The notes: a model not told the origin generated them from the sequence alone. A DNA stretch of 64,000 nucleotides from a bacterium (GCA_037130175.1 JBAXTN010000004.1:45606-109605), one strand, 5' to 3'. Shown: positions 1,686 through 60,914, numbered from the stretch's first letter. A program made the numbers and translations.

Positions 1686-3281
1686 TCACAACCTCCTCAA
1701 CACTGTATCCCGTTGGAACTTGGCGTCGTCATGCCCCAAGTGGTCGAGGGTATAATGCAGACCCCTGCTCTCCCTACGGCTCTGGGCACAATCAACGATC
1801 AGTGCGGCAGTGGTTGCCAGATTGCGAAGTTCCAGTAAGTCGGCGGTAATTTTGAAATTCCAGTAAAATTCCTGAATTTCGGTTTGCAGATTGCGCAGCC
1901 GATGGGCCGCCCGCTGGAGGCGCTTATCCGTACGGACAATGCCGACATAGTCCCACATCAGGCGACGTATCTCATCCCAGTTGTGATAGATCACGACCAG
2001 TTCGTCGAGATCCTGCACCTTGCCGGGACGCCATTCGGGAAGCTCGATCTCGATTTCCTGACGATGATGATTGCGACTCGCCTTGACCTCAGCACGGTGG
2101 GCAATGACGAGGGCTTCAAGCAATGAGTTGCTCGCAAGGCGATTTGCCCCGTGGAGTCCGGTGCAGGCGGCTTCCCCCACGGCATAGAGTCCACGAAGGG
2201 TGGTCTCTCCATTGAGATCGGTCTTTACACCGCCACATTGGTAATGCGCAGCTGGTACGACGGGAATCGGCTTGCGGGTGATGTCGATGCCCAGACCGCG
2301 GCAGGTCTCGTAGATAGTTGGGAAGCGTTCCCTGATAAAGTCAGCCGGTTTATGTGAGATATCCAGATAGACACACGGCTTGCCCGTGCGCTTCATCTCA
2401 GCATCGATAGCGCGAGCGACGATGTCCCGGGGGGCGAGTTCCAGACGCTTGTCATACTTCTTCATGAAGCGATGTCCCTTGTCATCGGTCAGGACTCCCC
2501 CCTCACCGCGTACCGCCTCCGTGATGAGAAAAGATTTAGCCTTAGGATGATAGAGGCAGGTAGGATGAAACTGCATAAACTCCATGTTCGAGATCGCAGC
2601 TCCTGCACGCCATGCCATCGCTACACCGTCTCCCGTGGCGATGTCGGGATTGGTGGTGTAGAGATAGACACGGCCGCATCCCCCCGTGGCCAGTACCGTC
2701 ACATCGGTACGAAGCGTCTCTACCTCACCGCTTGCTTCGTTGAGCACATAGAGCCCGATACAGCTGTCCTGGATCGCATAGCCGAGTTTACCCGTCGTGA
2801 TGAGATCGACCGCCATGTGATTTTCCAAGACCGTGATGTTGGGATGTGCGGCAATCGCGGCCAGCAGGGTCTTCTCAATCTCAAATCCCGTTGCATCCTT
2901 GGCATGGAGAATCCTACGCTTGGAGTGCCCTCCCTCGCGTCCGAGATCCGGCTCACGTACTCCCTCGGGGGTCGTTCTTTCATCAAAATTCATTCCGAGT
3001 CCAACCAGTTCTGCGATCCGTTCCGGGCCTTCGCTCACAATCGTCCTGACAACATCCTCGTCACAGAGACCGTCTCCGGCAATCAGTGTGTCACGAACAT
3101 GGAGGGCAATGGAGTCTTCATTGCTTGTCACGCAGGCGATGCCTCCCTGTGCCCAAGCGGTGTTGGAATCAGCCCTTGATTTCTTGGTCACGATGGCAAC
3201 CCTCCCCTTTTCCGCGGCCTTGAGGGCATACGACAGCCCTGCAATCCCGCTCCCGACGACGACATAATCAAAGGTTTTCAT
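1686..3281 (-). CDS. nadB: L-aspartate oxidase
   Basis: 531 aa. FAD-binding [18 protein letters not shown] and [26 protein letters not shown] motifs. 4-nt overlap with panC. Confidence 0.95.
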
Positions 3282-12463: not shown

Positions 12464-13351
12464 TTATTGATGTTTAGGTCTGAAAATTACCTGTGCGGCA
12501 ACATTAGTCACCGTCACCAAAGTGACCAGAACCAGGGAAGCGGTCCAGGCCATCGCCACATGATGGGAATATGGCAATGCGGCAAAGTTGAAGATAAGCA
12601 CAGAGAGCGAAGCCGTTGGCTCCATCAGCGAATGAATCCAGTTGTAGCTGAAGAGAGCAGTGAAGAGCACCGGGGCTGTCTCCCCCGAAGCCCTTGCGAC
12701 TGCAAGCATGATGCCGGTCATCATGGCGGGAGACGCCTCGGGAAGAACGATTCTCCAGATCGTCTGAAACGGTGTGGCCCCAACTCCAAAGGAAGCCTCC
12801 CGGTAGGCATAGGGCACCCCCATCAGAGCCTGTTCTGCCGTGAGCAGGATCGTGGGAAGAATAAGAATGGAAAGCGCAATGCCTCCCGCAAGCGCAGAAA
12901 ACTTATGGGTCGTCATCACGATGGCGGCAAACGCAAAAACACCGCAGATGATTGATGGAATTCCTGTCAGCAACTTGGCCACAAACCGCACTGCCGAGGC
13001 CAGATTGGAAACAGGGGCATATTCGTTGACATAGACCGCAGCAAAGATCCCTAGCGGGACAGAGAAAATCAGGGAAATGCCCACCATGGCCAAAGTGCCG
13101 ACGACAGCATTTCCAAAACCTCCTCCATCTTGGCCGGGGGCGGGAGGAAGTTGCGTAAAGAGATTTGGCCCCAGCAAAGGCATCCCTTTCTGAAGCAACA
13201 GAATGATGATCGAGAGAAGGGGTATCAGCGTCAGCAAAGAGAGAAAGATGCAGAGCCCCGTCAAAAATTTATTTCTTAGAAGACGCAGGAGTGATGTTTG
13301 CCTGCCCGCTCCCGAGAAAAAATTTGGAGTGAGAGTCACGGTACTGTTCAT
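12464..13351 (-). CDS. pstA: Phosphate ABC transporter permease PstA
   Basis: 295-aa polytopic permease with an EAA-type loop ([21 protein letters not shown]). 4-nt overlap with pstC. Confidence 0.92.
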
Positions 13352-24540: not shown

Positions 24541-25608
24541 TCAGTGAGCGAAAAGGTCTTCCAGAATTTCGATAAGTTCCACGGTCTCGTGGGAGGAATG
24601 CCAGGGAAGATGATTTATGGTGGGTTTAGGGAGCAACCAGACTTGTTTGGGACTCCGTACCCAGGGTGCAAACATACCCTGATGTTTGCCTGAGAAGAGA
24701 ACGAGTGTCCTGCAATCGAGGGCCGTCGCTGCATGGGCAGCAGCGGTATCAACAGTCAGCACACATTTGGATCCAGCGAGCAGATCGATGAAATCCTGGA
24801 GATTTTCAGGTATGACGATCTTCACCTTGGAGTTAAACTCCGAGGATGCCGCCATTAATAGGTTCTTGAAATCTATCAGACGCTGCCCCTGATCTTTTGA
24901 GCCTGTGAGGACAAGCACTGGAAGCCTCCCTGCTCTGTGAATGGAGATGAAGAGTTCGACCCAACGATCAAGGGGATAATCTTTTTCAATTCCGCTGGAA
25001 AAGGGGGCGCAGACCCAGAACGGTGTATCCAGTGGCGGGAGCCCGACGGGATTGAGCTCCGGCCAGATCTCCCCGATGGCGACATCCCTGCCAAGAGCCT
25101 TGCTTACAAGGAGACGGTGAGCTTCAAGTTCGTTAGGAACTCCCTCGATTCTGTTCGGATAATCAATAATGCAGGGATGGAAGATGAGTTCAAAGGCCTT
25201 CTCCGTCCATCGACGAACCGGCCGCTTGGACTCCAAGAGTGGATTACTGCAAAGAAATCGTTGCCTCCCCCTGACACTAAAGAACAGAACGGTTTGGAGA
25301 TAATCCCTCATATTGCGGAGGGAAATAGAGACATCGACCCTTGTTTTCAGGAGGGTTATCCACGGGAAAAAGCAGTTCATGCAATTCGCCACAAACTTAT
25401 TGAGGATGACCCTCCTTGTTCTAAGAGGGAGTTTCACGATGGCTGCTTTGGGAAATTGTCCCCTCACCACGGACTCCATGATTGGAAGTACGGCAATTGT
25501 CAGATTTTCCTCGCCAAACTCGCCCCCCAGCAGGCGCACAACTCCCGTGGAGAGAAAGAAATCCCCGATACCGTCGGGTTTAAAGAGAAAACATCGACAT
25601 TGATTCAT
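24541..25608 (-). CDS. Glycosyltransferase family 9 (heptosyltransferase-like)
   Basis: 355 aa. N-terminal FKPDGIGDFFLSTGVVRLL and C-terminal LTVDTAAAHAATALDCRTLVLFSG match the GT9 pattern. Confidence 0.72.
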   Translation of the reverse strand: MNQCRCFLFKPDGIGDFFLSTGVVRLLGGEFGEENLTIAVLPIMESVVRGQFPKAAIVKLPLRTRRVILNKFVANCMNCFFPWITLLKTRVDVSISLRNMRDYLQTVLFFSVRGRQRFLCSNPLLESKRPVRRWTEKAFELIFHPCIIDYPNRIEGVPNELEAHRLLVSKALGRDVAIGEIWPELNPVGLPPLDTPFWVCAPFSSGIEKDYPLDRWVELFISIHRAGRLPVLVLTGSKDQGQRLIDFKNLLMAASSEFNSKVKIVIPENLQDFIDLLAGSKCVLTVDTAAAHAATALDCRTLVLFSGKHQGMFAPWVRSPKQVWLLPKPTINHLPWHSSHETVELIEILEDLFAH

Positions 25609-44249: not shown

Positions 44250-45635
44250 CTAACACGATTTTCGCAGATGGCTTGGTAGAATACCTAGTTGTTCCCGATA
44301 TTTTGCAATGGTTCGTCTCGCCACTTTCAGGCCCCGTTCATCGAGGCGGGTGACAATTTCCTGGTCGCTGAGGGGATCACGGGAGGACTCCTGATCCACC
44401 ATCTCTCGGATGGCCTGCTTCACCATCTCATTACTCACAGCGGTGCCATCGGAATTCTGGAAGCCCGGTGTAAAAAAATATCTGAGTTCCAGCAATCCCT
44501 GAGGGGTATCCATATACTTGCCGGAAACCGCCCTGCTTACCGTGGTCACATGCAGCCCAACCACATCGGCAATCTGTGCCATGATCAGGGGTTTAAGCGC
44601 CGATGCTCCCATGCGAAAAAAATCCTCCTGTCTGGAAACAATTTCATTACCGATTGCGAGCAGTGTCTGCTGCCGTTGTTGCAGACTTCTCAGAAAGACG
44701 CGTGCCCCACGGATTTTACCCCTAAGATAGAGAAGAAGATCTTCATTATTTCCCCGTTCGGCCAACATATCCTTATACTCCTTGGAAATACGAAGCCGGG
44801 GCAGATCCTCCTCATTCAGTCTCACAACAAAACCCTCCCCGTCCGGGATCACGATCAGGTCGGGAATAACCCCCTGTTCATCAGCATTGGAAAATGGTCG
44901 CCCCGGCTTTGGCTCAAGTGTTGCGATCAACTTCGCAGCAGCTACAACATCGGCTGACGGAACTCTGAAATGCTTGGCTATTTCATCATAGCGATGCCTC
45001 GCCAGAAGTTGAAGATGGTGCCTCAGGATGCGTGCTGCCAAACCATTTCCCTCACCACGACGCGCCAATTGGAGCAAGAGAGAGTCTGCAAGATCGGACG
45101 CGGCCACGCCGGCGGGTTCGAACTGCCTCACTTTCTCAAGTGTTTTTTCCAGAAACGACTCGGACACGCCGCCTGCAACAGCAAGCTCCGCATGATCCAT
45201 CCGCAGATACCCATCCTGATCGAGATTGCCTGCAATGACCTCGACAACCCGTCTTTCCCTCTCATCCAATCCGGCGGCCTGGTCGATGATGAAATCCCTT
45301 AAAGTCGGGCGTGATGCGAGAGACTCAAAAAGATAGCGCCTCTTCTCCTCGTCCTGTGAGGAATAATGGGCTGTGGAGGCAGCCTGGGGCATGTATTCCC
45401 TCCATTCCTCCTGAAGGCTGGAGGCCCTTTCCGGGAGAGCTTTGTTGTCACGGAACGACTCAGCGGACTCAATAGCAGGCGATTCCTCTTCCAGCACAGG
45501 GTTGGATGCCAACTCTGCGGCAACAAGCTGCCTGAGCTCAGCAACCGGAGTTTGCAGGAGCTGCAAACTCTGTTGCATCTGCGGCGAGAGGGTTTGCTGC
45601 TGAGCAACCCCTATGATGAGATCCATTCCGGCCAT
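44250..45635 (-). CDS. rpoN: RNA polymerase sigma-54 factor
   Basis: 461 aa. Gln/Leu-rich region I (QQQTLSPQMQQSLQLLQ), an HTH, and the RpoN box ARRTIAKYREQLGI. Confidence 0.95.
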   Translation of the reverse strand: MAGMDLIIGVAQQQTLSPQMQQSLQLLQTPVAELRQLVAAELASNPVLEEESPAIESAESFRDNKALPERASSLQEEWREYMPQAASTAHYSSQDEEKRRYLFESLASRPTLRDFIIDQAAGLDERERRVVEVIAGNLDQDGYLRMDHAELAVAGGVSESFLEKTLEKVRQFEPAGVAASDLADSLLLQLARRGEGNGLAARILRHHLQLLARHRYDEIAKHFRVPSADVVAAAKLIATLEPKPGRPFSNADEQGVIPDLIVIPDGEGFVVRLNEEDLPRLRISKEYKDMLAERGNNEDLLLYLRGKIRGARVFLRSLQQRQQTLLAIGNEIVSRQEDFFRMGASALKPLIMAQIADVVGLHVTTVSRAVSGKYMDTPQGLLELRYFFTPGFQNSDGTAVSNEMVKQAIREMVDQESSRDPLSDQEIVTRLDERGLKVARRTIAKYREQLGILPSHLRKSC

Positions 45636-45753
45636 AGAGTCAGAATGGTAACTTGATCAACTTATGCAAGCAACTTTTAGGCCAACTAATGAACCAATTA
45701 GAAGATAAATCTCTCTTGTTTATCAAAATGTGCAGGTTGATAGTAAAGGTGCC

Positions 45754-46914
45754 ATGAGCTCATACGAGGGTAATCCCGAAGGTTTTTTCGCACCTTCAAA
45801 CCGCCTTTCTAGGGAGGATGTGGCCCGGCAGGTCAGCGAATTGGATGATTCCGGCTTGCTCACGCCCATCTTTGAAAGCATGCCCTATATGGTGATGATC
45901 CTGAACCGTCAGCGACAGATCATCTACGGCAACAAGGTTCTCCGCGAATACGGAGCGTCTCACGGGCACTCCGACTTCCTCGGTCTCCGTCCCGGCGAGT
46001 TTCTGGGTTGTCAGCGCGAATCCCGAGCCCCGTTCGGATGCGGCACCGGCGAAGCCTGTAGAAATTGCGGTGCCGTCAACGCCATTCTGGCCGGCTTATC
46101 AGGCCAGGACGCCTGTTTGGAGTGTCATATCGGGCAAGTGGAAAACGAGGCTCTGGATCTCAGGATCTTTGCAAGCCCCTTCCGATGGCGCACGCACGAG
46201 CATGTCCTGGTCATCGCAACAGACATCAGCGATCAAAAACGCCGCCAGATTCTGGAGAGAATCTTCTTTCATGACATTCTCAACACAGCAGGTGGCATCC
46301 AGGGACTTGCCGAACTCATGGTCAGCGATGCAGAAATGTCATCCGAACTTTCCCCTGACCTGCTTTCCAACGCTCAGAAGCTTGTTCAGGAAATACAGAA
46401 TCAGAAACTGCTCCTCGCGGCGGAAAATCATGACCTTGACTGCACATTAACTCCCCTCTCCTCACTGGTGCAGATGGAATCCGTGGCCACCTCTTACCGC
46501 CATCATGAAGTGGGACATGCCAAATCAGTGGTAATTGATTCCGATTCAAAAAACTGCACGCTGCTTTCCGACGAGGCAATTCTCCAGAGGGTCCTGGGCA
46601 ATCTCCTAAAAAACGCCCTCGAGGCAACAGATGACGGAGGCAAGGTAAAATTGGGTACGGAAACAAAAGAAGGGGATGTCATCTTTTGGTGCTGGAATGC
46701 AGGTCACATTCCTCGTTCATCTCAACTGCAGATCTTTCAACGCAGCTTTACCACCAAAGGCATCGGTCACGGCTTAGGAACCTACAGCGTAAAACTCCTC
46801 ACAGAGCGCTACCTTGGAGGCAGAGTCTCTTTCAAGTCATCCCAAGAATTAGGGACTCAGTTTGAAATCAGACTTCCACTAGACCGACCTGCACCAAAGC
46901 GACACGATACCTAA
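45754..46914 (+). CDS. Soluble sensor histidine kinase with a Cys-rich PAS-like N-terminal domain
   Basis: ATG at 45754 (a GTG at 45730 is also possible). H-box FFHDILNTAGG, N-box LGNLLKNALEA and G-boxes TKGIGHGLGTY. There is no TM helix. Cys pattern C-x9-C-x5-C-x2-C-x15-C-x2-C. Confidence 0.82.
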   Translation: MSSYEGNPEGFFAPSNRLSREDVARQVSELDDSGLLTPIFESMPYMVMILNRQRQIIYGNKVLREYGASHGHSDFLGLRPGEFLGCQRESRAPFGCGTGEACRNCGAVNAILAGLSGQDACLECHIGQVENEALDLRIFASPFRWRTHEHVLVIATDISDQKRRQILERIFFHDILNTAGGIQGLAELMVSDAEMSSELSPDLLSNAQKLVQEIQNQKLLLAAENHDLDCTLTPLSSLVQMESVATSYRHHEVGHAKSVVIDSDSKNCTLLSDEAILQRVLGNLLKNALEATDDGGKVKLGTETKEGDVIFWCWNAGHIPRSSQLQIFQRSFTTKGIGHGLGTYSVKLLTERYLGGRVSFKSSQELGTQFEIRLPLDRPAPKRHDT

Positions 46915-46921
46915 TTAAAGA

Positions 46922-46941
46922 GAGACCGTGAATCCGGTCTC
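46922..46941. terminator. Probable bidirectional terminator hairpin between convergent genes
   Basis: GAGACCG-TGAATC-CGGTCTC (7-bp stem) with ATTT on the plus side and CTTTAATT on the minus side. It lies between the stop codons at 46914 (+) and 46966 (-). Confidence 0.5.
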
Positions 46942-46947
46942 ATTTGC

Positions 46948-46969
46948 GATTAAATCAGTGATAGCTTAA
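46948..46969 (-). repeat. Degenerate copy (18/22) of the 22-nt inverted-repeat motif
   Basis: GATTAAATCAGTGATAGCTTAA versus the right arm GATTAAATCAGCGGTTCCTTAA, with an exact 11-mer shared. It overlaps the stop codon of the PEP-CTERM gene. Confidence 0.5.
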
Positions 46970-48048
46970 GGCGAGGTGCGTCGGCGAAGTACCACGGCAA
47001 GCACGACACCAGAGAGACCGAATAGGATCCAAGTTTTGGGTTCGGGTACTGTGATGACAAGGGTGGACATCAGAAGGGATTGTTGTGCGTAGTCACTATA
47101 GCCCGTGGTCACGACACCTTCGTTTGTATAGAGTTGGCTGTTGGTATCATTGAGTGTCCAAAAAGTACCAAAAGAGGCAATATTCGTTCCTCCCGCAATC
47201 CCAGTAAAATCATCTCCGATAATACTGTTTGTTCCAAGAACCGTGTAGTTTCCCACACCTGTGGTGAAGAGATTTGTGCCGCTGATATTTGTATAGTTCA
47301 ATACCGTGATGGTCTCATTGGTGGTACCGACCCCATAGATGTTGAATCCAAGGTGGACAATTTGATTGTCGGATATTCCTGAAAGCGCTGTACCATTATT
47401 TTTTTTAAGCACCTGATTGGTCACAGCATTATTTCCATAGGAACTTGCAGAGAGATTCCAAGTAGCCGCACCGTCTGATGTGGTGAGGTTAATGCTCATC
47501 AGCGCATTGCCCGCTGTATTGAGCAATGTCCATCCCATGGTGTCGAAATTTCCATTGGCATTTGCAGCACTTGTGTACATGTAAAAAGTACTGTCGAAGT
47601 GTATCATATTAATTCCTGTTCCTGTCAGCGTATTGGCCATGTAGGTTGTTACGCTTTGTGGGTAGGTGACGGAATTATTTATATCAGTCGAGAAAAAGTC
47701 ATCTCCTCCCAAGACATTAAAATTAGGGTTATTTTTATTAGCCAGTGCACTGTTGTGATAAATGACGCCCGGTCCGTATTGCGGCCCACCCTGCTGCGTA
47801 AGGTTCGTCCATCCATTCTGGCCGGATGTTTCTGTAGCCCAATATGTAGAGGAAGGGGGGATAATTACACTAGGAGTTGTGCTATTTGTTGTGTAGGTGT
47901 AAGAGCCGCTACCACTTGTGGCTGTACGGAAATCAGTAGCGTACACTGTAGTATTGGTGAGGCTTGGTACTGACTGAGCCTGAAGCAATGAAATCATGCT
48001 CAGAAATAAGACTGAACTATAGCAAACGACTTTAATTCTTTTGTTCAT
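46966..48048 (-). CDS. PEP-CTERM sorting-domain secreted protein (putative exosortase substrate)
   Basis: 360 aa. Signal peptide MNKRIKVVCYSSVLFLSMISLLQAQS, a Thr/Asn/Ser/Gly-rich body, and a C-terminus VPEPKTWILFGLSGVVLAVVLRRRTSP (PEP motif, TM helix, Arg cluster). Confidence 0.85.
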   Translation of the reverse strand: MNKRIKVVCYSSVLFLSMISLLQAQSVPSLTNTTVYATDFRTATSGSGSYTYTTNSTTPSVIIPPSSTYWATETSGQNGWTNLTQQGGPQYGPGVIYHNSALANKNNPNFNVLGGDDFFSTDINNSVTYPQSVTTYMANTLTGTGINMIHFDSTFYMYTSAANANGNFDTMGWTLLNTAGNALMSINLTTSDGAATWNLSASSYGNNAVTNQVLKKNNGTALSGISDNQIVHLGFNIYGVGTTNETITVLNYTNISGTNLFTTGVGNYTVLGTNSIIGDDFTGIAGGTNIASFGTFWTLNDTNSQLYTNEGVVTTGYSDYAQQSLLMSTLVITVPEPKTWILFGLSGVVLAVVLRRRTSP

Positions 48049-48419: not shown

Positions 48420-50912
48420 ATGAGAGCTCTAGGGAATGCAGTAACGGGAGGAAATGACAGCCACTGCTGCAAATCATTCTGTGGATTATCTTTTCTGATT
48501 CTTGCCTCGCTGGCGGCTATTTTTCTGGCTGGCGGACCTGCTCAGGGTGGGATGGGGATCTTTCTTGCGGTTGTCGGGACGGTGCTTCTGCTGATTACTC
48601 CCACGCGGGCGGTTCCGTGGGGATTTTGGGGCTTGAGCGCTCTGATTCTGCTTGCCGCTACTTCCGCGATGATTCCCGCAGACGGGTTTGGATCACCATC
48701 ATGGAGAGAAAACTTGCAGAAGCTGCCGGCTCTTGTTCTACCGCACCAAGTCACGCTGGATCCCAGGGCGACGCTCTTTTGGATTTTGCTTCTCTCATCC
48801 AGTATTCTGATCGCCCTCTTTCTTCTGGGATCGCCACTATCTGCGGAGGGCATGGAACGCGTTGCTCTACTTGCGGTTCTCGGGTGTTCGGTCTACGCGG
48901 TAGTCGCTTGGATGTCGTGGCAGACGGAGTGGCGTTATCCCTTTTTTCATCAGGAGTGGTGGATGCAGCCTGCATACGGTTTCTTTCCGAATCGCAATCA
49001 GACCGCCGGTTTTCTGCTGACAGGTGCGATCCTCTCTCTCGGGCTTATTTATCGTGGAATCACGGGAGGTCGCCTGCTGCCCGCATTGATTGCAGCAGCC
49101 TCCTTTGCGTTTCTTGTTTCGATGTTGCTGCTCTTTTCCAAGTCCCGTGGCGGGGTTGTCTTTCTGATTGTGGGTGTTCTCCTGTGGATCGCGGGGCTGG
49201 GAAGGCATCGTTCCCGATGGCTGGTAGTTGGTGCGACTGTACTCGGACTTGTGATCGCAACCCTCTTTCTGACTTCCGAAAGCGAGTTGCTCGTCCGCTT
49301 GCGGGGAGATTCCCCCCATGCTGCGGCCACTGACGGAACCGGCTCAGTTGAACAGGATCTCTCTGCGGGCGATTTCAATCCGTTTGCCGATGCCCGCGTT
49401 TCTATCTGGAGGGATACTTTATCCATGATTGCCGATTTTCCGGTAAGCGGAACAGGACTGGGCACATACCAGCTGAATTACCCGTTCTATGCGAAGAAAA
49501 GTTTGAGGGATAAGACAACCGCCCGCCATGCTGAGAGCGACTGGCTCACGCTTGGTGCCGAATCCGGACTGCCTGCACTCGTGCTGGTGCTCGGTGGACT
49601 GGCTATCCTCATATCTCGCATCCCCCGGTTGGAGCGAGATTCTGGAGCAAGCTGGCCTGTGCGATGGGCTTTCCTTTCCGCATTCTTTGCGGAGTTATTG
49701 CACGGGTTAGTGGATGTGCCCCTGCACAAGCCGGAGCTTGGTTGGTGGATCCTGTTGTTGGGTGGCATGGGTTTTGCCACGGCATGCGGGGAAGAACAGG
49801 TGAAGGGGGTTTCGCTCGGGATTCAGAGGGCGTTTTTCGTTGCAGGAGGGATCGGTATGATTGTTTTTGGTGGAGTTTGCATCTGGGCTCAATGGTTGAG
49901 CGGTTCGGCGCTTCCTCCCTATGCACCTGCCGCTGAAGAGAAAAAAGTGAGCGAACTTTTTGGTGATGGAGAAAAACCAAGTCTGGAACTGGCTGTTGCT
50001 GAATGTCGCAAAGCCATTGCGCAGTATCCTCTGGCTCACGCACTTTATTTTCAGCTTGGTGCGCTCATTCTGGATCTGGGTGGGGATCCCAAACAAAGCA
50101 TAACTTTCTTTGGTGTGGAAAACTCCCTTTCTCCGCATGATCCGATGGCGCCTTTCGAGCAGGGAAAGTTGCTGCTTCCGGTGGAACCAGAACCTGCGGT
50201 GATTCTTTGGGAGGAAGCTCTTCGACGGCAGCTTTTTTTGGACCATTTGCCGAATTCTCAGATAGCCCGATCTCGCGAATTGTTTCAACAGATCCTTGCT
50301 TATGCTGCGCAGTCGCCGCTTCTTCTTGCCCGGATGCCCGGCTTGGCGCGGCTTGATCCAAAGTTCCAACTCCTTTGGCTTATGAATCCGTCGTGCGACT
50401 CATCACTGATTGCTGCTGCGGTTCAGGACTCTGCATTCATGGAGAAGCATTCCCCCATAGAACAGGGCCGGTTAATCCATTCTTGGTATGAACGGGGAGA
50501 CAAGTCTGCAGTGCATACATTTCTCGATGTCCATCCGGCATATGGGCGCATTGCTGCAGCGACATGGGCTGCCATTTTCGCTCAGGACGGGCAGCACAGG
50601 GAGGCCTGTATGAATCTGATCGATACTTTCCATATTCCAGTATCGGAAATGAAAGTTGGTAGAGATGCAGCGATCCGTGGTGCTAATGGCGATGTGCCCT
50701 CCGACTCCCTTGCAGCAGCAAAGTATTACCTAGATCATGGCAATGAAGTTACCGCGCGCCGTCTGCTAGCAGAAGCCATGAGCACGGGACCGCGCACGGG
50801 CACCGTTGCCGAGACCCTTCGACTCCGCGCGGTGATGGCAATGCGTGCAGGGGACTGGAAATCGGCCCTATCCGATTTGTTGGACTATTTACATGTGAGC
50901 GGTCAGCTGTGA
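48420..50912 (+). CDS. O-antigen ligase/polymerase-like (Wzy_C) membrane protein with a long C-terminal helical-repeat extension
   Basis: 830 aa. About 470 aa are polytopic and carry the Wzy_C-type loop (TGTGLGTYQL..ARHAESDWLTLGAESGLPALVLVLGG). About 350 aa are a soluble TPR-like tail. Confidence 0.72.
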   Translation: MRALGNAVTGGNDSHCCKSFCGLSFLILASLAAIFLAGGPAQGGMGIFLAVVGTVLLLITPTRAVPWGFWGLSALILLAATSAMIPADGFGSPSWRENLQKLPALVLPHQVTLDPRATLFWILLLSSSILIALFLLGSPLSAEGMERVALLAVLGCSVYAVVAWMSWQTEWRYPFFHQEWWMQPAYGFFPNRNQTAGFLLTGAILSLGLIYRGITGGRLLPALIAAASFAFLVSMLLLFSKSRGGVVFLIVGVLLWIAGLGRHRSRWLVVGATVLGLVIATLFLTSESELLVRLRGDSPHAAATDGTGSVEQDLSAGDFNPFADARVSIWRDTLSMIADFPVSGTGLGTYQLNYPFYAKKSLRDKTTARHAESDWLTLGAESGLPALVLVLGGLAILISRIPRLERDSGASWPVRWAFLSAFFAELLHGLVDVPLHKPELGWWILLLGGMGFATACGEEQVKGVSLGIQRAFFVAGGIGMIVFGGVCIWAQWLSGSALPPYAPAAEEKKVSELFGDGEKPSLELAVAECRKAIAQYPLAHALYFQLGALILDLGGDPKQSITFFGVENSLSPHDPMAPFEQGKLLLPVEPEPAVILWEEALRRQLFLDHLPNSQIARSRELFQQILAYAAQSPLLLARMPGLARLDPKFQLLWLMNPSCDSSLIAAAVQDSAFMEKHSPIEQGRLIHSWYERGDKSAVHTFLDVHPAYGRIAAATWAAIFAQDGQHREACMNLIDTFHIPVSEMKVGRDAAIRGANGDVPSDSLAAAKYYLDHGNEVTARRLLAEAMSTGPRTGTVAETLRLRAVMAMRAGDWKSALSDLLDYLHVSGQL

Positions 50913-50951
50913 TGTTTAGGACATTTTCCCACTGAGCCCTTACATTCCGTG

Positions 50952-52514
50952 ATGCCACCATCCCGCCGACATTCCGCGTTGAAACCACGCCTGATTGCCG
51001 CACTGTTTTCCCTCAAGTTGCTTGCCTTCCTGCCGCATGCCTATGCCCAGGGCATTCCCACCGTGCAACAAAGCACCTTCCGTTCGCAGTGGGTTGGGGA
51101 GCAGGTTGATCAGATTCCACTCGGTGGCGGGGTGTCCCCCCTCAGTGGAATCGGAGGACTCGTTGGAAATTTGCAGACCCAGGATGAAGTGAAACGCGAG
51201 GTGGATGCCTCGCTCGCGGGAGTGAAGTCAAAATCGCCCTTCTCGATCAAGCCCGCCGTGGGGTTTGGATGGGAAGCATCCAATCAGGGTGTCACCAACC
51301 AGACAGCAGCGGGCACCACCTACTCGGCGGGCAGCAGTCCCTTTGTTGCCCCCAGCCTCGCCCTTCTCTATGATCGGGATCACGGCCCGTGGTCGGTCTC
51401 CGCAGGGTACGGAGCCGGATACAAGTATTATACCGATCCGAATTATGTCGCCAATGGATCGGGTTCCCTCCGCAACTCCTTTTCACAGACCGCCATGTTT
51501 CAGGCGATCCTCACCATGAGCCGCTACATGATCACCTCCCTGTTCAATGCCTCATCTGGCAATGGCTACGATGCCAGTTCAGGATCTAACAACCGCCAAA
51601 CCGCCCTGGGTGGAACCGTCGGTGCAAAGTATCTGCTTGGCAATTACGCGGGATTTCTGGCCAACGCGGGTTACAACTTTCAGAACTACTCGGGCTCCAC
51701 GGTGACCCCCAACAATAATACAGCCAATCTCTATGCCAACCTCGCTCCCATTTATTACCTCTCGGATAAAACCCACCTGAGCGCTCTATTTGGAGTAGGC
51801 AGCACTTCCCAGTCACTTCAACAGGGAAGCTATTCGGGCACTACCAACGCAGGTACAAATAGCATTCTGGCCAACAATCTCTCTGCCGCGCGAAATTACG
51901 CACAACTCGTGAACGAAGTCACCTACGACATCACCGGAAAGATCACCCTGGATGCCGGATTGGGAGCAAGGTACATTACCTCCACCTACTCCGGTGACTC
52001 TCGCTACCTCGGACTAAAACCTGCCTGGGTTCTGGGCATTGCCTACACGCCCACCACCAAGACTTCCATGACGCTGAGTGTTGGTGAACAAGGCTCCGAT
52101 ATCGTGCCCTCACTCAACTTTCTGCTTAACTGGAAGCCTCGTGATAAAACGACTTTCTCTCTGGCTGCCTCGCAGTCACAGAACTTTGCAAATTCCGTTG
52201 CTTCGCAGTATCAAGTCAGCAGGAGCCTTATCGGCACAGTCACCCAGAACCTTTTCACATCCGTTGTCCTTCAACTCTCGGCTGGATACGCGACACAGCG
52301 CTACATCAACCTAAATTCAGGCCCCTCCATCCTAACGATCAGTCAACTACCTTCGAATTACTACACGGCCAACGCCTCCGTCATTTGGAATATTCGTGAT
52401 TGGCTAACCCTCAATAATTCGGTGAATTACAACGGCGGTCAGACAGTTCAGGGTGCCAACGGTTCGTCGATTCCCCAAACCTGGTATTCCATTAGTTTGA
52501 ATTTCGCTCTGTAA
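50952..52514 (+). CDS. Outer-membrane beta-barrel protein (EPS-locus associated)
   Basis: Signal peptide (LKLLAFLPHAYAQG). Alternating Gly/Ser/Thr/Asn/Tyr-rich strands run throughout, ending WYSISLNFAL. Family not assigned. Confidence 0.6.
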   Translation: MPPSRRHSALKPRLIAALFSLKLLAFLPHAYAQGIPTVQQSTFRSQWVGEQVDQIPLGGGVSPLSGIGGLVGNLQTQDEVKREVDASLAGVKSKSPFSIKPAVGFGWEASNQGVTNQTAAGTTYSAGSSPFVAPSLALLYDRDHGPWSVSAGYGAGYKYYTDPNYVANGSGSLRNSFSQTAMFQAILTMSRYMITSLFNASSGNGYDASSGSNNRQTALGGTVGAKYLLGNYAGFLANAGYNFQNYSGSTVTPNNNTANLYANLAPIYYLSDKTHLSALFGVGSTSQSLQQGSYSGTTNAGTNSILANNLSAARNYAQLVNEVTYDITGKITLDAGLGARYITSTYSGDSRYLGLKPAWVLGIAYTPTTKTSMTLSVGEQGSDIVPSLNFLLNWKPRDKTTFSLAASQSQNFANSVASQYQVSRSLIGTVTQNLFTSVVLQLSAGYATQRYINLNSGPSILTISQLPSNYYTANASVIWNIRDWLTLNNSVNYNGGQTVQGANGSSIPQTWYSISLNFAL

Positions 52515-55790: not shown

Positions 55791-57677
55791 TCACTTCTTG
55801 GGCTTCGTAGCTGCCTTTACAGGGAGCTTCTCCATCAAGAGTTCCCTCTCCTCCGGCCTCAGCCTTTGAGAATCCACAGACTCCAAGAGAGCATCTGCAG
55901 CGAGCGGATCTCCGGAAGCACGCAGGACGGCAACTCGGACAGCCTTCCATGGCTCAGGGGCAGCAGCCCAGTCGATTTGCTTCCCCCTATAAATTTGAGC
56001 CGCCGCACCGGGATCGTCCTTTCGTAAATAGCCCAGAGCCACGGCGCTGAGACGAGCAAGGGAGTCAGGCTGATTGGACAGTAGCGTTACGGAAGTGTCA
56101 AAGGCACCCTGAACATCCTCTTTCTTCAGAAGCTTGAGATAGGCCAGATCGCCCGTTGCCTCACTGAACTGAGGAGCGGCGGCGTTCAACTCCTCATAAA
56201 GGGGAATCATGACCGATGCTGATGCATTGACGGGCTGAGATCGGATTAGCCCCACCAACCCAGGAACCCTAGTTTCAGCACGGTCGGCCATCGTCCGGTA
56301 AGTCCTGGCGGCACGGTCGAAGGCCCCGATCCTCTCTTCATATCCGGCAATGTAGTTGAGGGTATCAGGTTTTTCCCGTTGAAGCGATCCACTGACACTC
56401 CTCCATTCCTCTTCGGCACCCGCGGTGTTTCCCCTCATGGTGGCGACCCTTGCCAGATAGAGATGTCTTACTGCTTCGGGAATACCTGCACCTGCGGGTG
56501 AGGAGAGCATTCGTTCCACGACCGGCCAGTTCTCTTGCGCACTTTGTGCATCGAGCACGATCAGCATCCAATCCGTGTCATCATAGGGATTATCCTTCCC
56601 TGCCAGTGAGATAACCTGATCATACAATCCATTTGCATTCAGCCACCGGGCCAGCTCAAGCAACTCTTGACGCGGAGCATTGTGAAAAGCCCCCTTTATC
56701 CGTTGCACAACCGCTTCTTTACTAGAGGGATCGGCCTTGATCTCCAGATCGGCAGCAAGGAGCACATCACCTGTTTGATGTCCCGGAAGGACTGGTAGCA
56801 AGCGGGAGACCTCCATCAGTTTGGCAGCGTCCAATCCCCCCCCCTCGATCAGATGGTTTTGCAGAGAGAGCCTCGCGAGCATTCTTGCGGCAGCGAGGGA
56901 AGTACTCGATTTTTCCCTCATGACACCCAACAGAATATCGCCCCCTCGTCGTGCAGACGCAGCATGATTTACGGAGAGTAAATAGAGAGCCGCCTGATTC
57001 CTAAGTCGCGCCGAGTCTTCTCCTCTTACAGACTGGGCTTTCTCAAGGCAAAATGCAGCAGCCGACTCGGGCCCCTCGTCCCTTTTTTTGATCAGAGCCT
57101 GGATCAGGGTCTTCCTCATTCGCTGAGACGGGCCAAGCACGGACGGGAGCTTTGCGACGGCTTCGCGGGTCACATCCCATTGCCCCTGTCGTGCCCCCAG
57201 CTCTGCGATCCCAAGAAGCTCTTCTCGATCCGACAACCCGGCATTCATCCGTTCCAGAAGCTTTTGAAGGGAAGTTTTATCCCCCACCCTGGCATTGTAT
57301 AACTCAACAGCATGCTGCACCGAGTCGCTTCCTGGAGAGAGCGCGAGGGCCTGTTTCATTAGAGACACTGCCCGCTCGTCATCACCGACGGCAAAAGCGG
57401 ATGCAGACGCGTTCATGATCATTCCGGCACGCCAACCCTTCAGCATTCGATACAGTGAGGGGATTGAAATCAGCACCACAAGCATCGCAAGAACGACGCC
57501 AATAGACTTCCATCTTAGGGGATCGGCATACCATTTACCACCTGCACTTGGCGGAACGGCATCCTCATCCACATAATCGGGAAGCTCCATTCCTTCACTG
57601 CCGCTGACTTGCCGCACGCCATGATCTCCAGAGAGTCCGGCCCCGTTGGAGTTTTTATTAGGTTCCTCGGTACTCAT
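55791..57677 (-). CDS. Membrane-anchored TPR-repeat protein, translationally coupled to the exosortase
   Basis: 628 aa. One TM helix (WKSIGVVLAMLVVLISIPSLY), then TPR-like helical repeats. Its start codon overlaps the exosortase stop (ATGA at 57674..57677). Confidence 0.65.
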   Translation of the reverse strand: MSTEEPNKNSNGAGLSGDHGVRQVSGSEGMELPDYVDEDAVPPSAGGKWYADPLRWKSIGVVLAMLVVLISIPSLYRMLKGWRAGMIMNASASAFAVGDDERAVSLMKQALALSPGSDSVQHAVELYNARVGDKTSLQKLLERMNAGLSDREELLGIAELGARQGQWDVTREAVAKLPSVLGPSQRMRKTLIQALIKKRDEGPESAAAFCLEKAQSVRGEDSARLRNQAALYLLSVNHAASARRGGDILLGVMREKSSTSLAAARMLARLSLQNHLIEGGGLDAAKLMEVSRLLPVLPGHQTGDVLLAADLEIKADPSSKEAVVQRIKGAFHNAPRQELLELARWLNANGLYDQVISLAGKDNPYDDTDWMLIVLDAQSAQENWPVVERMLSSPAGAGIPEAVRHLYLARVATMRGNTAGAEEEWRSVSGSLQREKPDTLNYIAGYEERIGAFDRAARTYRTMADRAETRVPGLVGLIRSQPVNASASVMIPLYEELNAAAPQFSEATGDLAYLKLLKKEDVQGAFDTSVTLLSNQPDSLARLSAVALGYLRKDDPGAAAQIYRGKQIDWAAAPEPWKAVRVAVLRASGDPLAADALLESVDSQRLRPEERELLMEKLPVKAATKPKK

Positions 57678-59251
57678 GGCTTGGCAGGGATCATACCATA
57701 TCCACCCGAGGCTTCCCGAAGAGTCCGTAGAAGCTCCTTTTTTGCCGAGATTTCATCGGGACAATCCCACAGGGCAACCTCCACCATTCGCTGCCCCTGA
57801 TTCCGACGGGCGGTCAGCAGGGATCTCAGCCTGCCACTTGGAGAGTCCTCAGGGGCATCAGGGTTTTTTCCTGCCTCAGCGCCATTTTCAATTAGTGCTT
57901 GAAAGACATAAACCGACCGACCGTGTTCCTCAAAGACCCATGACTTAAAGGGGATCTTTCCGGAACCAAGATCACATGTCAGGGGAGCGAGGCTGGATAG
58001 TAAATGCATCCCGACACTCGACAGACAAGCCTCCGGATTGTGCATGGCTACTGCTTGAACCGCCGTGCGGCCGGCAGGCCATTCAAAGAAAAACATCTGC
58101 CCTCTTTTCCCCTCTGGAGTGATCCATTTTTCCGAAAATCCCGTGGGGTAAAACAGCAGCCGAAGGGTGCTTGGCGAGAGTGGAACACCTGTCACACCCT
58201 GCACCCCCTCACGACGTCTAAGACTCCAGTCCCATCGTCCTCGATCGCCCTGTTCATGCGATACAAACCAGATCTCCGTGAGGACCAGCGAGCTTGAGAG
58301 AATAAGAGCGACCGCCGCGAGACACCATCCCGACCCCTTATCTTCTGCCTTAGTCGCTGGTTTTCGAGGGGCAGATTGCTCCTGCGCTAACGGATTTCGC
58401 ACCTTTCTTCTCCAGAAGTAGGCACATCCAAAAATTGTTCCGAAGGTGATCAGAAAAACCAAGATCCCGGCACGGTCATGCCATGCGGACACCGCTCCAA
58501 GTCCTTGCGATGAGGCAATAAGGGCAAGGAGTGCATTGCGAGCGACATTGCCCGCCACCGCAGCGAGGATCGCGACAATCACCAGGAGAACCCTGCGACT
58601 CGGGATAAGGCGAAACATCTCTCCCATGAAGAGCGCCGCCATCAGACCGCTTTGTAACGATCTGATGCCACTGCAAGCCTCCTCGATATCAAGTACGCCC
58701 GAGGGTAGCACGATCAGGTTTCCCTGACGCATGGCATCATAGCCTGCCCAGTGGAGGATCTCCAATGTCGTCGATGCATTCCATCTCATGAGACGGAACA
58801 TGACGAACTGCTCGAGATTCCGTGTCCACGGGACAGCGATCAGAAAGAAGCAGATTGGAAATGCAAAATACCTCATCCAAGCAACGCCTCCGTCCCATGC
58901 CACGACCGCAAGCGTGATCGTCACGGCAGCACAGGAGGCGATAAGCCCCAAGGGTCGCCAATCGGGGTTTGCCACGGACATCGGAATGGTCAACGCCAAC
59001 AAGAGTCCAGCGAGGCAGAACAGCACCGCCGCAATACGTTTTTCCCCTGGATGCAGAGTGGAACGCACCGGCTTCTCTTCCCAGCGTTTCAACAAAAGCC
59101 CGATCACCAGCAGCGGCACAAGGACACCGTAACTGTATTGAGGGTCTAATCTCCAGTCGGTCCAGAGTATCCTCAGTGTCGCACACCAAGTCAGCCCTAG
59201 GACAAGCAGTGGCAACAACCACTTTGGGAGAAATAATCGGTCAATCGGCAT
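57674..59251 (-). CDS. Exosortase (EpsH-type) fused to a C-terminal EpsI-like domain
   Basis: 525 aa. A polytopic N-terminal ~300 aa carries the exosortase signature DIEEACSGIRSL (Cys), GNVARNALL (Arg) and SAWHDRAGILVF (His). The C-terminal ~200 aa carries the EpsI-type HNPEACL motif. Confidence 0.9.
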   Translation of the reverse strand: MPIDRLFLPKWLLPLLVLGLTWCATLRILWTDWRLDPQYSYGVLVPLLVIGLLLKRWEEKPVRSTLHPGEKRIAAVLFCLAGLLLALTIPMSVANPDWRPLGLIASCAAVTITLAVVAWDGGVAWMRYFAFPICFFLIAVPWTRNLEQFVMFRLMRWNASTTLEILHWAGYDAMRQGNLIVLPSGVLDIEEACSGIRSLQSGLMAALFMGEMFRLIPSRRVLLVIVAILAAVAGNVARNALLALIASSQGLGAVSAWHDRAGILVFLITFGTIFGCAYFWRRKVRNPLAQEQSAPRKPATKAEDKGSGWCLAAVALILSSSLVLTEIWFVSHEQGDRGRWDWSLRRREGVQGVTGVPLSPSTLRLLFYPTGFSEKWITPEGKRGQMFFFEWPAGRTAVQAVAMHNPEACLSSVGMHLLSSLAPLTCDLGSGKIPFKSWVFEEHGRSVYVFQALIENGAEAGKNPDAPEDSPSGRLRSLLTARRNQGQRMVEVALWDCPDEISAKKELLRTLREASGGYGMIPAKP

Positions 59252-59387: not shown

Positions 59388-60914
59388 TCACCGTCCTTTG
59401 CCAAAGGTCATCACATGGAGGGTTTTAAGCAGCACCTCGGCATCAAGTCGGAGCGAGAAGTTCCTGATGTAGAAGAGATCATACGAGAGTTTCTGTAGCG
59501 TGTCGTCGAGTGATGCTCCATAGGGGTAATTCACCTGCGCCCATCCCGTGATTCCCGGTCTTACGAGATGACGGAAATGGTAGTTGGGGATTTGAGCTTC
59601 ATATTCCTCCACAAGCTTAGTCCATTCGGCCCTCGGTCCGATAAGGCTCATGTCTCCCTTAAGCACATTCCAGAGTTGGGGTAGCTCATCAAGGCGGACC
59701 TTGCGCAGAAAAACCCCAAGAGGGGTCACCCGGGCGTCACCCTCCCGCGTATACGAGTCACCCTGATCGCTCCCTAATTTCATGGAACGAAACTTATACA
59801 TGGAAAATGGCTTTTGATTAATCCCCACTCTCTTCTGTGAGTAAATAATTGGAGATCCATCCTTGATCCAGATAAGCAATGCAACGAGGAGCATCACGGG
59901 CGATAGGAGAATCAACGCGATCAGCGAAACGACCACATCCACGATGCGCTTAAGGGCAGAATAAATCGAGTTTTTAACCAAAACGAAATTTGCTTCAAAC
60001 GGCCACCCCGAGCCGACGATTTCGAGAGAAAGCCTGGACCAGAAGGTTTCGTAAAACGAGTCCATGGAGTAGACAGGCGTTTCCTCAAAATGAATCACTC
60101 CGAGCTGCATCATGATGGCTGGATCGATCTTGGAAAACCGTGATGCAATGACAATACCCTCGTAGTTGGCCGTGTAGCTTCGATTAAGCAAAGAGAGCAT
60201 CTTGCTGAGCGGATAACGCACAATCGGCGATCCTTCACCAGCAATGGGCTTGCCGAGCATGGAGGATCCTGCGGCAAAGCATCGCAGAATCTGATGCTGC
60301 CCGCTGCGAACGTATTCGGCATAAAACTGCGGCCCGTACAGCTCATCCACAATTGCTAGGATTTTCCCCCGCGAACGATATCGACAGTTTTTAAACCAGA
60401 AGACTCTCCTGCCAATAAGTGATATAATCGCAAATAGTAGGATCGATACTGAAAAAATAGCACGACTGGATCCCACCTCACTGCCAAACGAAGCTACTGC
60501 ATACTGGAAAAAAGCGGCTAAAGGGTAGGCCACCATACAGGCTATCAAGTGCTCGCTGGAGTAGCGTAAACACGCAAAATCGGTGTGTATTTTATAACCA
60601 CCAATCAGGGCGATCGAAAACATCAGTATCCCTATTGGAATGATTACTGAACCAACTGTGATGGCATTGTAGGAACCCGTGAGAGTAGATATTCCAAAAT
60701 AGAGTCCAAGCCAAAGGAGTAAATCGAGGACCAACGATGATAAGGCAAAGAGTGTTGCCGCCCCCCTTCCCCGGGAGCGAAACCGCTTTGCGGTTACAGA
60801 CTTAGATCTAGCAACAAGCTCCGCACGCGCTGCGGAACTACTTTCGGGACGCGGCGCAGTCCTTTTAGAGGTACGCGCTACAGTGCTGCTTACAGCGTAG
60901 CTATCGATATTCAT
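59388..60914 (-). CDS. Polyprenyl-phosphate glycosyl-1-phosphate transferase (WbaP/EpsB-type priming sugar transferase)
   Basis: 508 aa. N-terminal TM block, C-terminal bacterial sugar transferase domain (KRVGINQKPFSMYKFRSM..DELPQLWNVLKGDMSLIGPRAE..GITGWAQV). Confidence 0.9.
   Translation of the reverse strand: MNIDSYAVSSTVARTSKRTAPRPESSSAARAELVARSKSVTAKRFRSRGRGAATLFALSSLVLDLLLWLGLYFGISTLTGSYNAITVGSVIIPIGILMFSIALIGGYKIHTDFACLRYSSEHLIACMVAYPLAAFFQYAVASFGSEVGSSRAIFSVSILLFAIISLIGRRVFWFKNCRYRSRGKILAIVDELYGPQFYAEYVRSGQHQILRCFAAGSSMLGKPIAGEGSPIVRYPLSKMLSLLNRSYTANYEGIVIASRFSKIDPAIMMQLGVIHFEETPVYSMDSFYETFWSRLSLEIVGSGWPFEANFVLVKNSIYSALKRIVDVVVSLIALILLSPVMLLVALLIWIKDGSPIIYSQKRVGINQKPFSMYKFRSMKLGSDQGDSYTREGDARVTPLGVFLRKVRLDELPQLWNVLKGDMSLIGPRAEWTKLVEEYEAQIPNYHFRHLVRPGITGWAQVNYPYGASLDDTLQKLSYDLFYIRNFSLRLDAEVLLKTLHVMTFGKGR

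Follow-up and report, generated by a model that had tools for sequence, protein, structure and literature searches.

What does a gene that overlaps the stop codon of an exosortase gene do for the enzyme encoded beside it? The question is raised by a 64,000-nucleotide stretch of bacterial DNA (GCA_037130175.1, JBAXTN010000004.1:45606-109605), referred to below as the window, with positions counted from its first letter. Here a 525-amino acid (aa) exosortase that ends in an EpsI-family domain is followed by a 628-aa membrane protein with a predicted tetratricopeptide repeat (TPR)-like solenoid. By comparing this pair of genes across genomes and metagenomes, we find that, of all its neighbours, only the TPR gene remains beside this exosortase when the locus is rearranged, and we suggest that its product may be a subunit of the exosortase itself. 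The module is most likely a PEP-CTERM/exosortase sorting-enzyme unit, in a form specific to the Chthoniobacterales (Verrucomicrobiota).

Both genes lie on the minus strand and encode the two polypeptides that a preliminary description of the window had reported. The exosortase gene is a single open reading frame (ORF) at 57674..59251, recognized by its matches to PF09721 and TIGR04178 and by an AlphaFold2 model; the gene for the 628-aa single-pass membrane protein, an ORF with 121 homologues and a modelled TPR-like solenoid, lies at 55791..57677. The exosortase stop codon and the start codon of the 628-aa gene share four nucleotides (57674..57677), which read ATGA on the minus strand and appear as TCAT on the plus strand, so the reported overlap is real. 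We take the start codon in the overlap, the upstream start of the 628-aa ORF, to be correct because the first residues (M-S/N-x-E/D) align among the homologues; most close relatives have no start codon before the conserved region other than the ATG in the overlap. We found no terminator or promoter of note between the two genes. Three more same-strand ATGA overlaps occur in the window (3278-3281, 13348-13351, and 25605-25608), making four in total. Four-base overlaps are therefore routine here, and the ATGA overlap alone is ordinary and unremarkable.

If the overlap itself says little, is the association of the two genes conserved? With the exosortase alignment as query, a scan that took one genome for each species found the fused exosortase in at least 584 species-level genomes, and the best 80 of these were examined as loci. 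All that were inspected belong to the Verrucomicrobiota, mostly as metagenome-assembled genomes of Chthoniobacterales/Spartobacteria, and all 80 loci encode the full-length fused exosortase including its C-terminal domain. TPR neighbours were sought among the ORFs of each locus with hidden Markov models (HMMs) of the family, including a second HMM built from distant matches, and a TPR gene was scored as adjacent when it lay within 600 nucleotides (nt) of the exosortase. Four loci had flanks too short for judging a TPR neighbour, which left 76 assessable. A TPR-family gene is adjacent in 66 of these 76: directly downstream on the same strand in 37, divergently transcribed and directly upstream in 20, and directly upstream on the same strand in 9. 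A further 5 loci have the TPR gene 0.75-7 kb away, and the last 5 have no TPR homologue within 10 kb. Conservation of the TPR gene beside orthologous exosortases, a check that had been set in advance, is thus borne out. The narrower expectation that the TPR family follows the fused exosortase gene describes the 37 downstream loci but not the 20 divergent, the 9 upstream, or the 5 that lack a homologue within 10 kb. In a metagenome survey that started from the TPR family, an exosortase gene was directly upstream in 33 of the 37 loci with usable upstream DNA.

The distance between the two genes varies far more than their association. Among loci with the TPR gene downstream, about 22 show an ATGA or GTGA overlap, others are spaced by +1 to +22 nt, and one subclade has gaps of +36 to +355 nt; spacing among the homologues overall ranges from -11 to +355 nt. 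The ATGA overlap recurs in about 15 metagenome loci and is not universal. A "fixed 1:1 coupling", as first supposed, does not hold up, given that it is only the closer relatives that often have the 4-nt overlap, that the TPR gene stands upstream or divergent in more distant ones, and that ATGA overlaps are commonplace in the window. What endures is adjacency. It persists through inverted gene order and switched strands among exosortases with as little as 32% identity, and the exosortase-TPR pair is kept in more than 100 loci. The gene for a priming transferase, by comparison, adjoins the exosortase in 16/16 loci of the close clade and falls within the flanks of only 1/30 loci of the distant clade, and Wza and Wzc homologues are near the exosortase in 0/16 close-clade and 2/30 distant-clade loci. 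Because the TPR gene stays with the exosortase through rearrangements in which other neighbours are lost, a functional link between the two genes is supported, both by the 66 of 76 genome loci in their three arrangements and by the metagenome loci. We regard the conserved pair as good comparative evidence that suggests a functional partnership, and not as evidence for obligatory translational coupling. Two peculiarities of individual loci should be mentioned. In three of them (L032, L039, and L040), two paralogous TPR-family genes flank the exosortase, one divergent upstream and the other downstream on the same strand. In a bog lineage, no exosortase is found within 3-6 kb upstream of the TPR gene, where unrelated ORFs on the opposite strand are seen; insertion or rearrangement may account for this.

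What kind of enzyme does the upstream gene encode? We take the 525-aa protein to be an exosortase of the cysteine transpeptidase type. PF09721 matches residues 19-280 (E = 4.5e-45; 154.5 bits versus a cutoff of 25.7), the TIGR04178 signature scores 54 bits versus a cutoff of 23, and TIGR02602 falls just under its threshold (98.1 versus 105.55). None of the named Xrt subtype models in NCBIfam reaches its cutoff (XrtA 106.9/208, XrtD 101.1/400, and XrtW 87.4/425). Residues C193, R238, and H258, which we take to be the catalytic residues of the proposed exosortase active site, are invariant in an alignment of 30 homologues. They help to define an eight-helix EpsH core (residues 12-280; 58412..59218, minus strand), also delimited by the helices of the model, and the catalytic-type Cys193 sits in the sequence EEACSG (58667-58684, minus strand; verified by translation). 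The AlphaFold2 model (predicted local distance difference test [pLDDT] 80, predicted TM-score [pTM] 0.79) consists of the helical core, a linker, a ninth helix at residues 305-332, and an alpha/beta domain at residues 353-514. We delimit the ninth transmembrane helix as residues 305-330 (58262..58339, minus strand). The linker (residues 281-304) is rich in basic residues, with seven Lys/Arg, is disordered in the model, and is predicted to be cytoplasmic. A Foldseek search of the PDB with this model matched no exosortase or EpsI structure.

The C-terminal domain was harder to place. It is an alpha/beta domain, predicted to be periplasmic, that occupies residues 331-514 (57710..58261, minus strand). 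The C-terminal 235 aa of the exosortase have no direct family match in Pfam or NCBIfam even at E ≤ 10, PF11984 and TIGR02914 included, and a precomputed PF11984 match is carried by 0/120 exosortase homologues. Using the domain as a profile to search 1.84 billion representative proteins, we recovered 1181 relatives, which comprise both fused forms and stand-alone proteins of ~200 aa. The stand-alone relatives were reached at E ~1e-31 (P0328 at ~5e-32 and P0332 at ~8e-32). Two of ten pass the gathering score of PF11984/DUF3485 (26.1), namely P0328 with 36.3 bits and P0332 with 29.4 bits, and five others have sub-threshold PF11984 matches. When the exosortase domain and the stand-alone EpsI relatives are aligned jointly, the H, P, and C of an HxPExC motif are invariant; in the 525-aa protein, alignment and translation place this motif, MHNPEACL, at residues 403-410 (58022-58045, minus strand). 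Conserved motifs of the domain are PxGFSE, WPxGRT, MHNPExCL, and RNxGQRxxExAxW. We accept the domain as a divergent member of the EpsI family because of this transitive profile homology and the common HxPExC motif. The label "EpsI-like" used in the preliminary description therefore stands by this indirect route, but it could not have been read from direct profile matches. The layout of the EpsI family, an extracytoplasmic domain behind a transmembrane helix, encoded beside an exosortase or fused to it, is matched here: the model has the helix and then the alpha/beta domain, and the fusion is present in 80/80 genome loci. The conserved His and Cys of HxPExC could point to bound metal or to a further catalytic site. 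The fold itself weakly resembles the Mog1/PsbP-like group: the best matches of a Foldseek search against the PDB are 3lyd, the DUF1795/Eag proteins SciW and EagT6, DcrB, LpqN, and PsbP, with E from 2.5e-3 to 0.1, TM-scores by target of 0.39-0.50, and no sequence similarity. The fusion is less unusual than had been thought, as EpsH-EpsI fusions were already part of the founding description (PMC1569441; Haft et al. 2006). The same 2006 survey detected no EpsI in Verrucomicrobium spinosum (PMC1569441), which fits the divergence of the domain described here.

We then asked what the 628-aa partner is. No NCBIfam family matches it, none of its 121 homologues carries a name (0/121), a search of the PDB with the family profile returned no sequence relative, and a literature search found no description of the TPR partner. 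Two Pfam TPR models match below threshold, both at residues 94-121 (TPR_7 20.5/27.9 and TPR_14 19.4/23.5); residues 80-628 gave nothing useful in Pfam or NCBIfam at E ≤ 10. Some homologues carry PF13428 or PF14559 matches. In the AlphaFold2 model (pLDDT 84.7), about 30-32 helices build an all-alpha solenoid, and the 99 Foldseek matches at E ≤ 1e-3 are all TPR superhelices, among them Ctr9, the TPR domain of OGT, IFT70, subunits of APC, and LbcA. The earlier "TPR" label is thus upheld by the predicted solenoid and its structural matches and finds only sub-threshold matches in Pfam; the protein is TPR-like by predicted fold only. Its TPR-like solenoid, delimited from the model and Foldseek, covers residues 97-615 (55833..57389, minus strand) and is predicted to be periplasmic. 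The sole hydrophobic segment lies at residues 58-76 (SIGVVLAMLVVLISIPSLY; 57450..57506, minus strand), with a mean Kyte-Doolittle hydropathy of 2.29, and would form a single transmembrane helix acting as a signal anchor. The only Cys of the protein is far from this helix, and with no Cys in or near the helix there is therefore no lipobox. The helix is preceded by a tail of 57 aa (residues 1-57; 57507..57677, minus strand) that the model indicates to be disordered, with pLDDT < 50 over residues 1-48, and that is predicted to be cytoplasmic. The single anchor, the missing lipobox, and an N-terminal tail of ~60 aa had all been described correctly, and the cytoplasmic location given for this tail agrees with the prediction.

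Three motifs stand out in the TPR family. Within the otherwise variable tail, an LP[D/S/A]Y sequence with acidic residues behind it occurs in 109/117 homologues and in all coupled orthologues. Alignment and a translation check locate it as LPDY at residues 32-35 of the 628-aa protein (57573-57584, minus strand); L32, P33, D34, and Y35 are invariant or nearly so, and acidic residues come after them. This LPxY motif is probably cytoplasmic and is a possible docking or tyrosine-modification site. We considered whether LPDY, the helix, and a basic cluster might mimic a PEP-CTERM tail as a pseudo-substrate and rejected this idea: 22-25 residues separate the motif from the helix, and the tail that holds it in the coupled orthologues has 9-18 Lys/Arg and no signal peptide, which would put the motif on the cytoplasmic side. 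The second motif, YRxxKxWRA, directly follows the transmembrane helix. The third, LRPEERxLL, was identified from conserved columns at the end of the solenoid (residues 606-613; 55839-55862, minus strand). Paralogues of ~30% identity that are encoded away from exosortases keep this last motif as LNP(Q/E)ERxLI.

On which side of the membrane do the EpsI domain and the solenoid lie? Lys/Arg-rich loops of the exosortase alternate as expected for an N-in protein. Under the positive-inside rule, these loop charges and the seven Lys/Arg of the linker would put Cys193, His258, and the EpsI domain on the periplasmic side, and we infer an N-in exosortase whose EpsI domain and active-site Cys, Arg, and His are periplasmic. 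The simple charge rule leaves the 628-aa protein undecided since the 15-residue flanks of the helix tie, with 3.6 versus 3.9 Lys/Arg on average, and the tail of this protein is net acidic (5 Lys/Arg and 10 Asp/Glu). We therefore turned to the N-tail charge of coupled orthologues. In orthologues that are ATGA-coupled to a 40%-identical exosortase (L012-L030), the N-tails are 62-82 aa long, contain 9-18 Lys/Arg, with basic stretches like PRRKK or RPRKK, and lack a signal peptide. Translocation of such long basic tails is very unlikely. The tail would therefore stay cytoplasmic and the solenoid would be periplasmic, with the EpsI domain and the active site on the solenoid's side of the membrane. 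We hold this predicted arrangement with good confidence. Distant members of the TPR family likewise have classic N-in anchors, for example MKR followed by a hydrophobic helix. Two distant members considered as support, P0117 and P0119, were given little weight since no exosortase is nearby on their contigs. The charge patterns thus agree with the initial proposal that both domains share a side, predicted to be periplasmic for EpsI and probably periplasmic for the TPR domain.

We propose, with a probability of about 0.55, that the 628-aa TPR protein serves the exosortase as an accessory or adaptor subunit and presents PEP-CTERM substrates or their acceptor beside the EpsI domain. In such a complex, the active-site Cys, Arg, and His of the exosortase would lie at the periplasmic face of the membrane, and the ninth transmembrane helix would join the exosortase core to the periplasmic EpsI-family domain. 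The partner, as a type-II (N-in) single-pass protein, would hold its 520-residue TPR-like solenoid in the periplasm next to that domain, where the solenoid could bind proteins as a scaffold and so bring PEP-CTERM substrates, or their acceptor, to the exosortase or position them there. We liken this arrangement to LbcA of Pseudomonas aeruginosa, which serves the periplasmic protease CtpA (PDB 7rqf and 8sxf). Of the bacterial proteins that Foldseek matched to the 628-aa model, LbcA is the best structural analogue (E = 6.7e-5, TMq 0.33), and it is a TPR solenoid that docks and activates an envelope protease. However, LbcA is a lipoprotein without sequence homology to the 628-aa protein, and CtpA is a soluble serine protease, so the comparison is offered as an analogy of mechanism only.

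Several observations weigh against an exosortase subunit. The 5 exosortase loci without a TPR homologue within 10 kb have good flanks, and the four exceptions in the metagenome survey (L102, L103, L105, and L113), although all from the one bog lineage, break the association. Distant paralogues (~30% identity over half their length) are encoded away from any exosortase. The tied helix flanks and the net acidic tail of the 628-aa protein do not favour a periplasmic solenoid, and EpsI, beside which the partner would act, has been without an assigned function since 2006 (PMC1569441). A more ambitious form of the proposal, which we consider doubtful, is that exosortase, EpsI domain, and anchored TPR partner together constitute an obligate three-part periplasmic holoenzyme. 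In it, EpsI would grip the helix of the PEP-CTERM tail, the TPR protein would select the substrate or acceptor, and the LPxY-acidic motif would couple a cytoplasmic partner, for example a polysaccharide tyrosine kinase. The notion that EpsI might bind the hydrophobic PEP-CTERM helix comes from the faint likeness of its modelled fold to Eag/DUF1795 chaperones, which hold transmembrane helices, and is only a lead. If true, such a holoenzyme would for the first time assign EpsI a part in a mechanism, and it would give an exosortase a defined accessory subunit.

Might the TPR protein belong instead to the polysaccharide machinery, as a periplasmic scaffold of assembly or export that stands beside the exosortase only through the polysaccharide loci common to both? 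TPR scaffolds are common in polysaccharide secretion, with AlgK, PelB, and BcsC as examples. The window does hold genes for a priming transferase and for GT4, Wza-, Wzc-, and Wzy_C-like proteins, and the priming transferase accompanies the exosortase throughout the close clade. We think this explanation unlikely: the distant clade keeps the TPR-exosortase pair in three arrangements with a priming transferase in 1/30 loci and Wza/Wzc in 2/30, and the Wza/Wzc operon of the window is near the exosortase in none of the 16 close-clade loci. A different alternative turns the protein around, so that an N-out anchor leaves the TPR domain in the cytoplasm, where it might bind the basic C-terminal tails of substrates or connect the exosortase with the cytoplasmic tyrosine kinase or the priming transferase. 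The acidic tail (5 Lys/Arg versus 10 Asp/Glu), the tied flanks, and the conserved YRxxKxWRA right after the helix would all suit this topology. It is improbable in our view, given coupled orthologues whose tails of 62-82 aa have up to 18 Lys/Arg and no signal peptide, and the classic N-in anchors of distant family members.

Another TPR-type protein, PrsT (TIGR02917), is genetically tied to PEP-CTERM systems (PMC1569441) and is probably periplasmic like the solenoid proposed here, and the 628-aa protein might be a functional stand-in for the PrsT of a PrsK/PrsR module that acts in signalling and not at the enzyme. Consistent with this, the window encodes a kinase with weak similarity to PrsK (55.9/300 bits) and rpoN beside a PEP-CTERM gene, and distant paralogues of the TPR protein score weakly on the PrsT model (31-33 bits versus a cutoff of 312). 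Yet TIGR02917 does not match the 628-aa protein, either whole at E ≤ 0.01 or over residues 80-628 at E ≤ 10. PrsT is a lipoprotein of ~900 aa from XrtA/PEP-CTERM systems, whereas the partner has 628 aa with a signal anchor behind a 57-aa tail and no lipoprotein signal. PrsT is linked to PrsK/PrsR (PMC1569441), and the conserved neighbour here is the exosortase gene, not a kinase or regulator. We therefore reject the identification of the 628-aa protein as PrsT for want of an HMM match, of a lipoprotein signal, and of a comparable size, in agreement with the preliminary description, which had set it apart from PrsT-type lipoproteins; even a stand-in role is very unlikely. Least of all do we credit the reading that the two genes have no specific relationship, their adjacency and overlap being inherited operon structure without functional meaning. 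ATGA overlaps are indeed common, with four in the window, and close relatives have their overall synteny in common. But adjacency outlasts inversion and strand switching among exosortases down to 32% identity while every other neighbour is lost.

How does the module compare with the EpsH/EpsI system of the founding description (PMC1569441)? It has the same eight-helix core, the same conserved Cys, Arg, and His, and the same extra helix and C-terminal EpsI-family domain, and it occurs in the same setting, a polysaccharide locus with a PEP-CTERM protein nearby. It differs in that the EpsI domain is too divergent for PF11984 and TIGR02914 and in that no Xrt subtype model reaches its cutoff.

The wider locus agrees with this description. 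Flanked by genes for a priming transferase and for GT4, Wza-like, Wzc-like, and Wzy_C-like proteins, the pair is embedded in a polysaccharide locus, and a PEP-CTERM protein and the polysaccharide genes are both within the 64-kb window of the exosortase. Directly upstream of the exosortase, and in the same operon direction, is a polyprenyl glycosylphosphotransferase, the priming transferase (59388..60914, minus strand; TIGR03025, 309.5 bits versus 295.55). A candidate substrate is a 360-aa PEP-CTERM protein (46966..48048, minus strand; PF07589 21.1/20.7 bits and TIGR02595 20.9/16), whose tail is canonical: VPEP, a hydrophobic helix, and then RRR. Next to it are the histidine kinase with weak PrsK similarity (45730-46914, plus strand; 55.9 bits versus a cutoff of 300) and rpoN (44250-45635, minus strand). 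This cluster of rpoN, kinase, and PEP-CTERM gene (44250-48048) brings to mind the way sigma-54 governs PEP-CTERM genes in Proteobacteria, as described earlier; the window showed no PrsR-type regulator. An 830-aa membrane protein matching the Wzy_C/O-antigen-ligase family (48420-50912, plus strand) has a C-terminal extension of ~360 aa that matches no family. With an hhalign probability of 0.4%, we ruled out this extension as a relative of the TPR family. A 521-aa ORF that lies between the Wzy_C-like and Wza-like genes and begins with a signal-like N terminus (50949-52514, plus strand; weak BBP2_2 beta-barrel porin match, E = 0.0019) may encode an outer-membrane component of the locus.

The PEP-CTERM/exosortase module as such is known, and what we describe is a probable new accessory part of it and not a system of a new kind; the TPR partner leaves the general view of PEP-CTERM sorting as it was. 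New are a large exosortase lineage of the Chthoniobacterales, a group of soil and freshwater bacteria, that has a cryptic EpsI domain and lies outside every curated subtype model, and an unnamed family of membrane-anchored TPR-like partners covered by no Pfam or NCBIfam family. Being below every named Xrt cutoff, the exosortase lineage would merit its own subtype definition, and the exosortase and TPR genes together form a marker pair for annotating a lineage that current NCBIfam and Pfam models leave unclassified. Exosortases are widespread and their biochemistry is poorly known, and the TPR partner offers itself for co-expression, co-purification, and structural studies.

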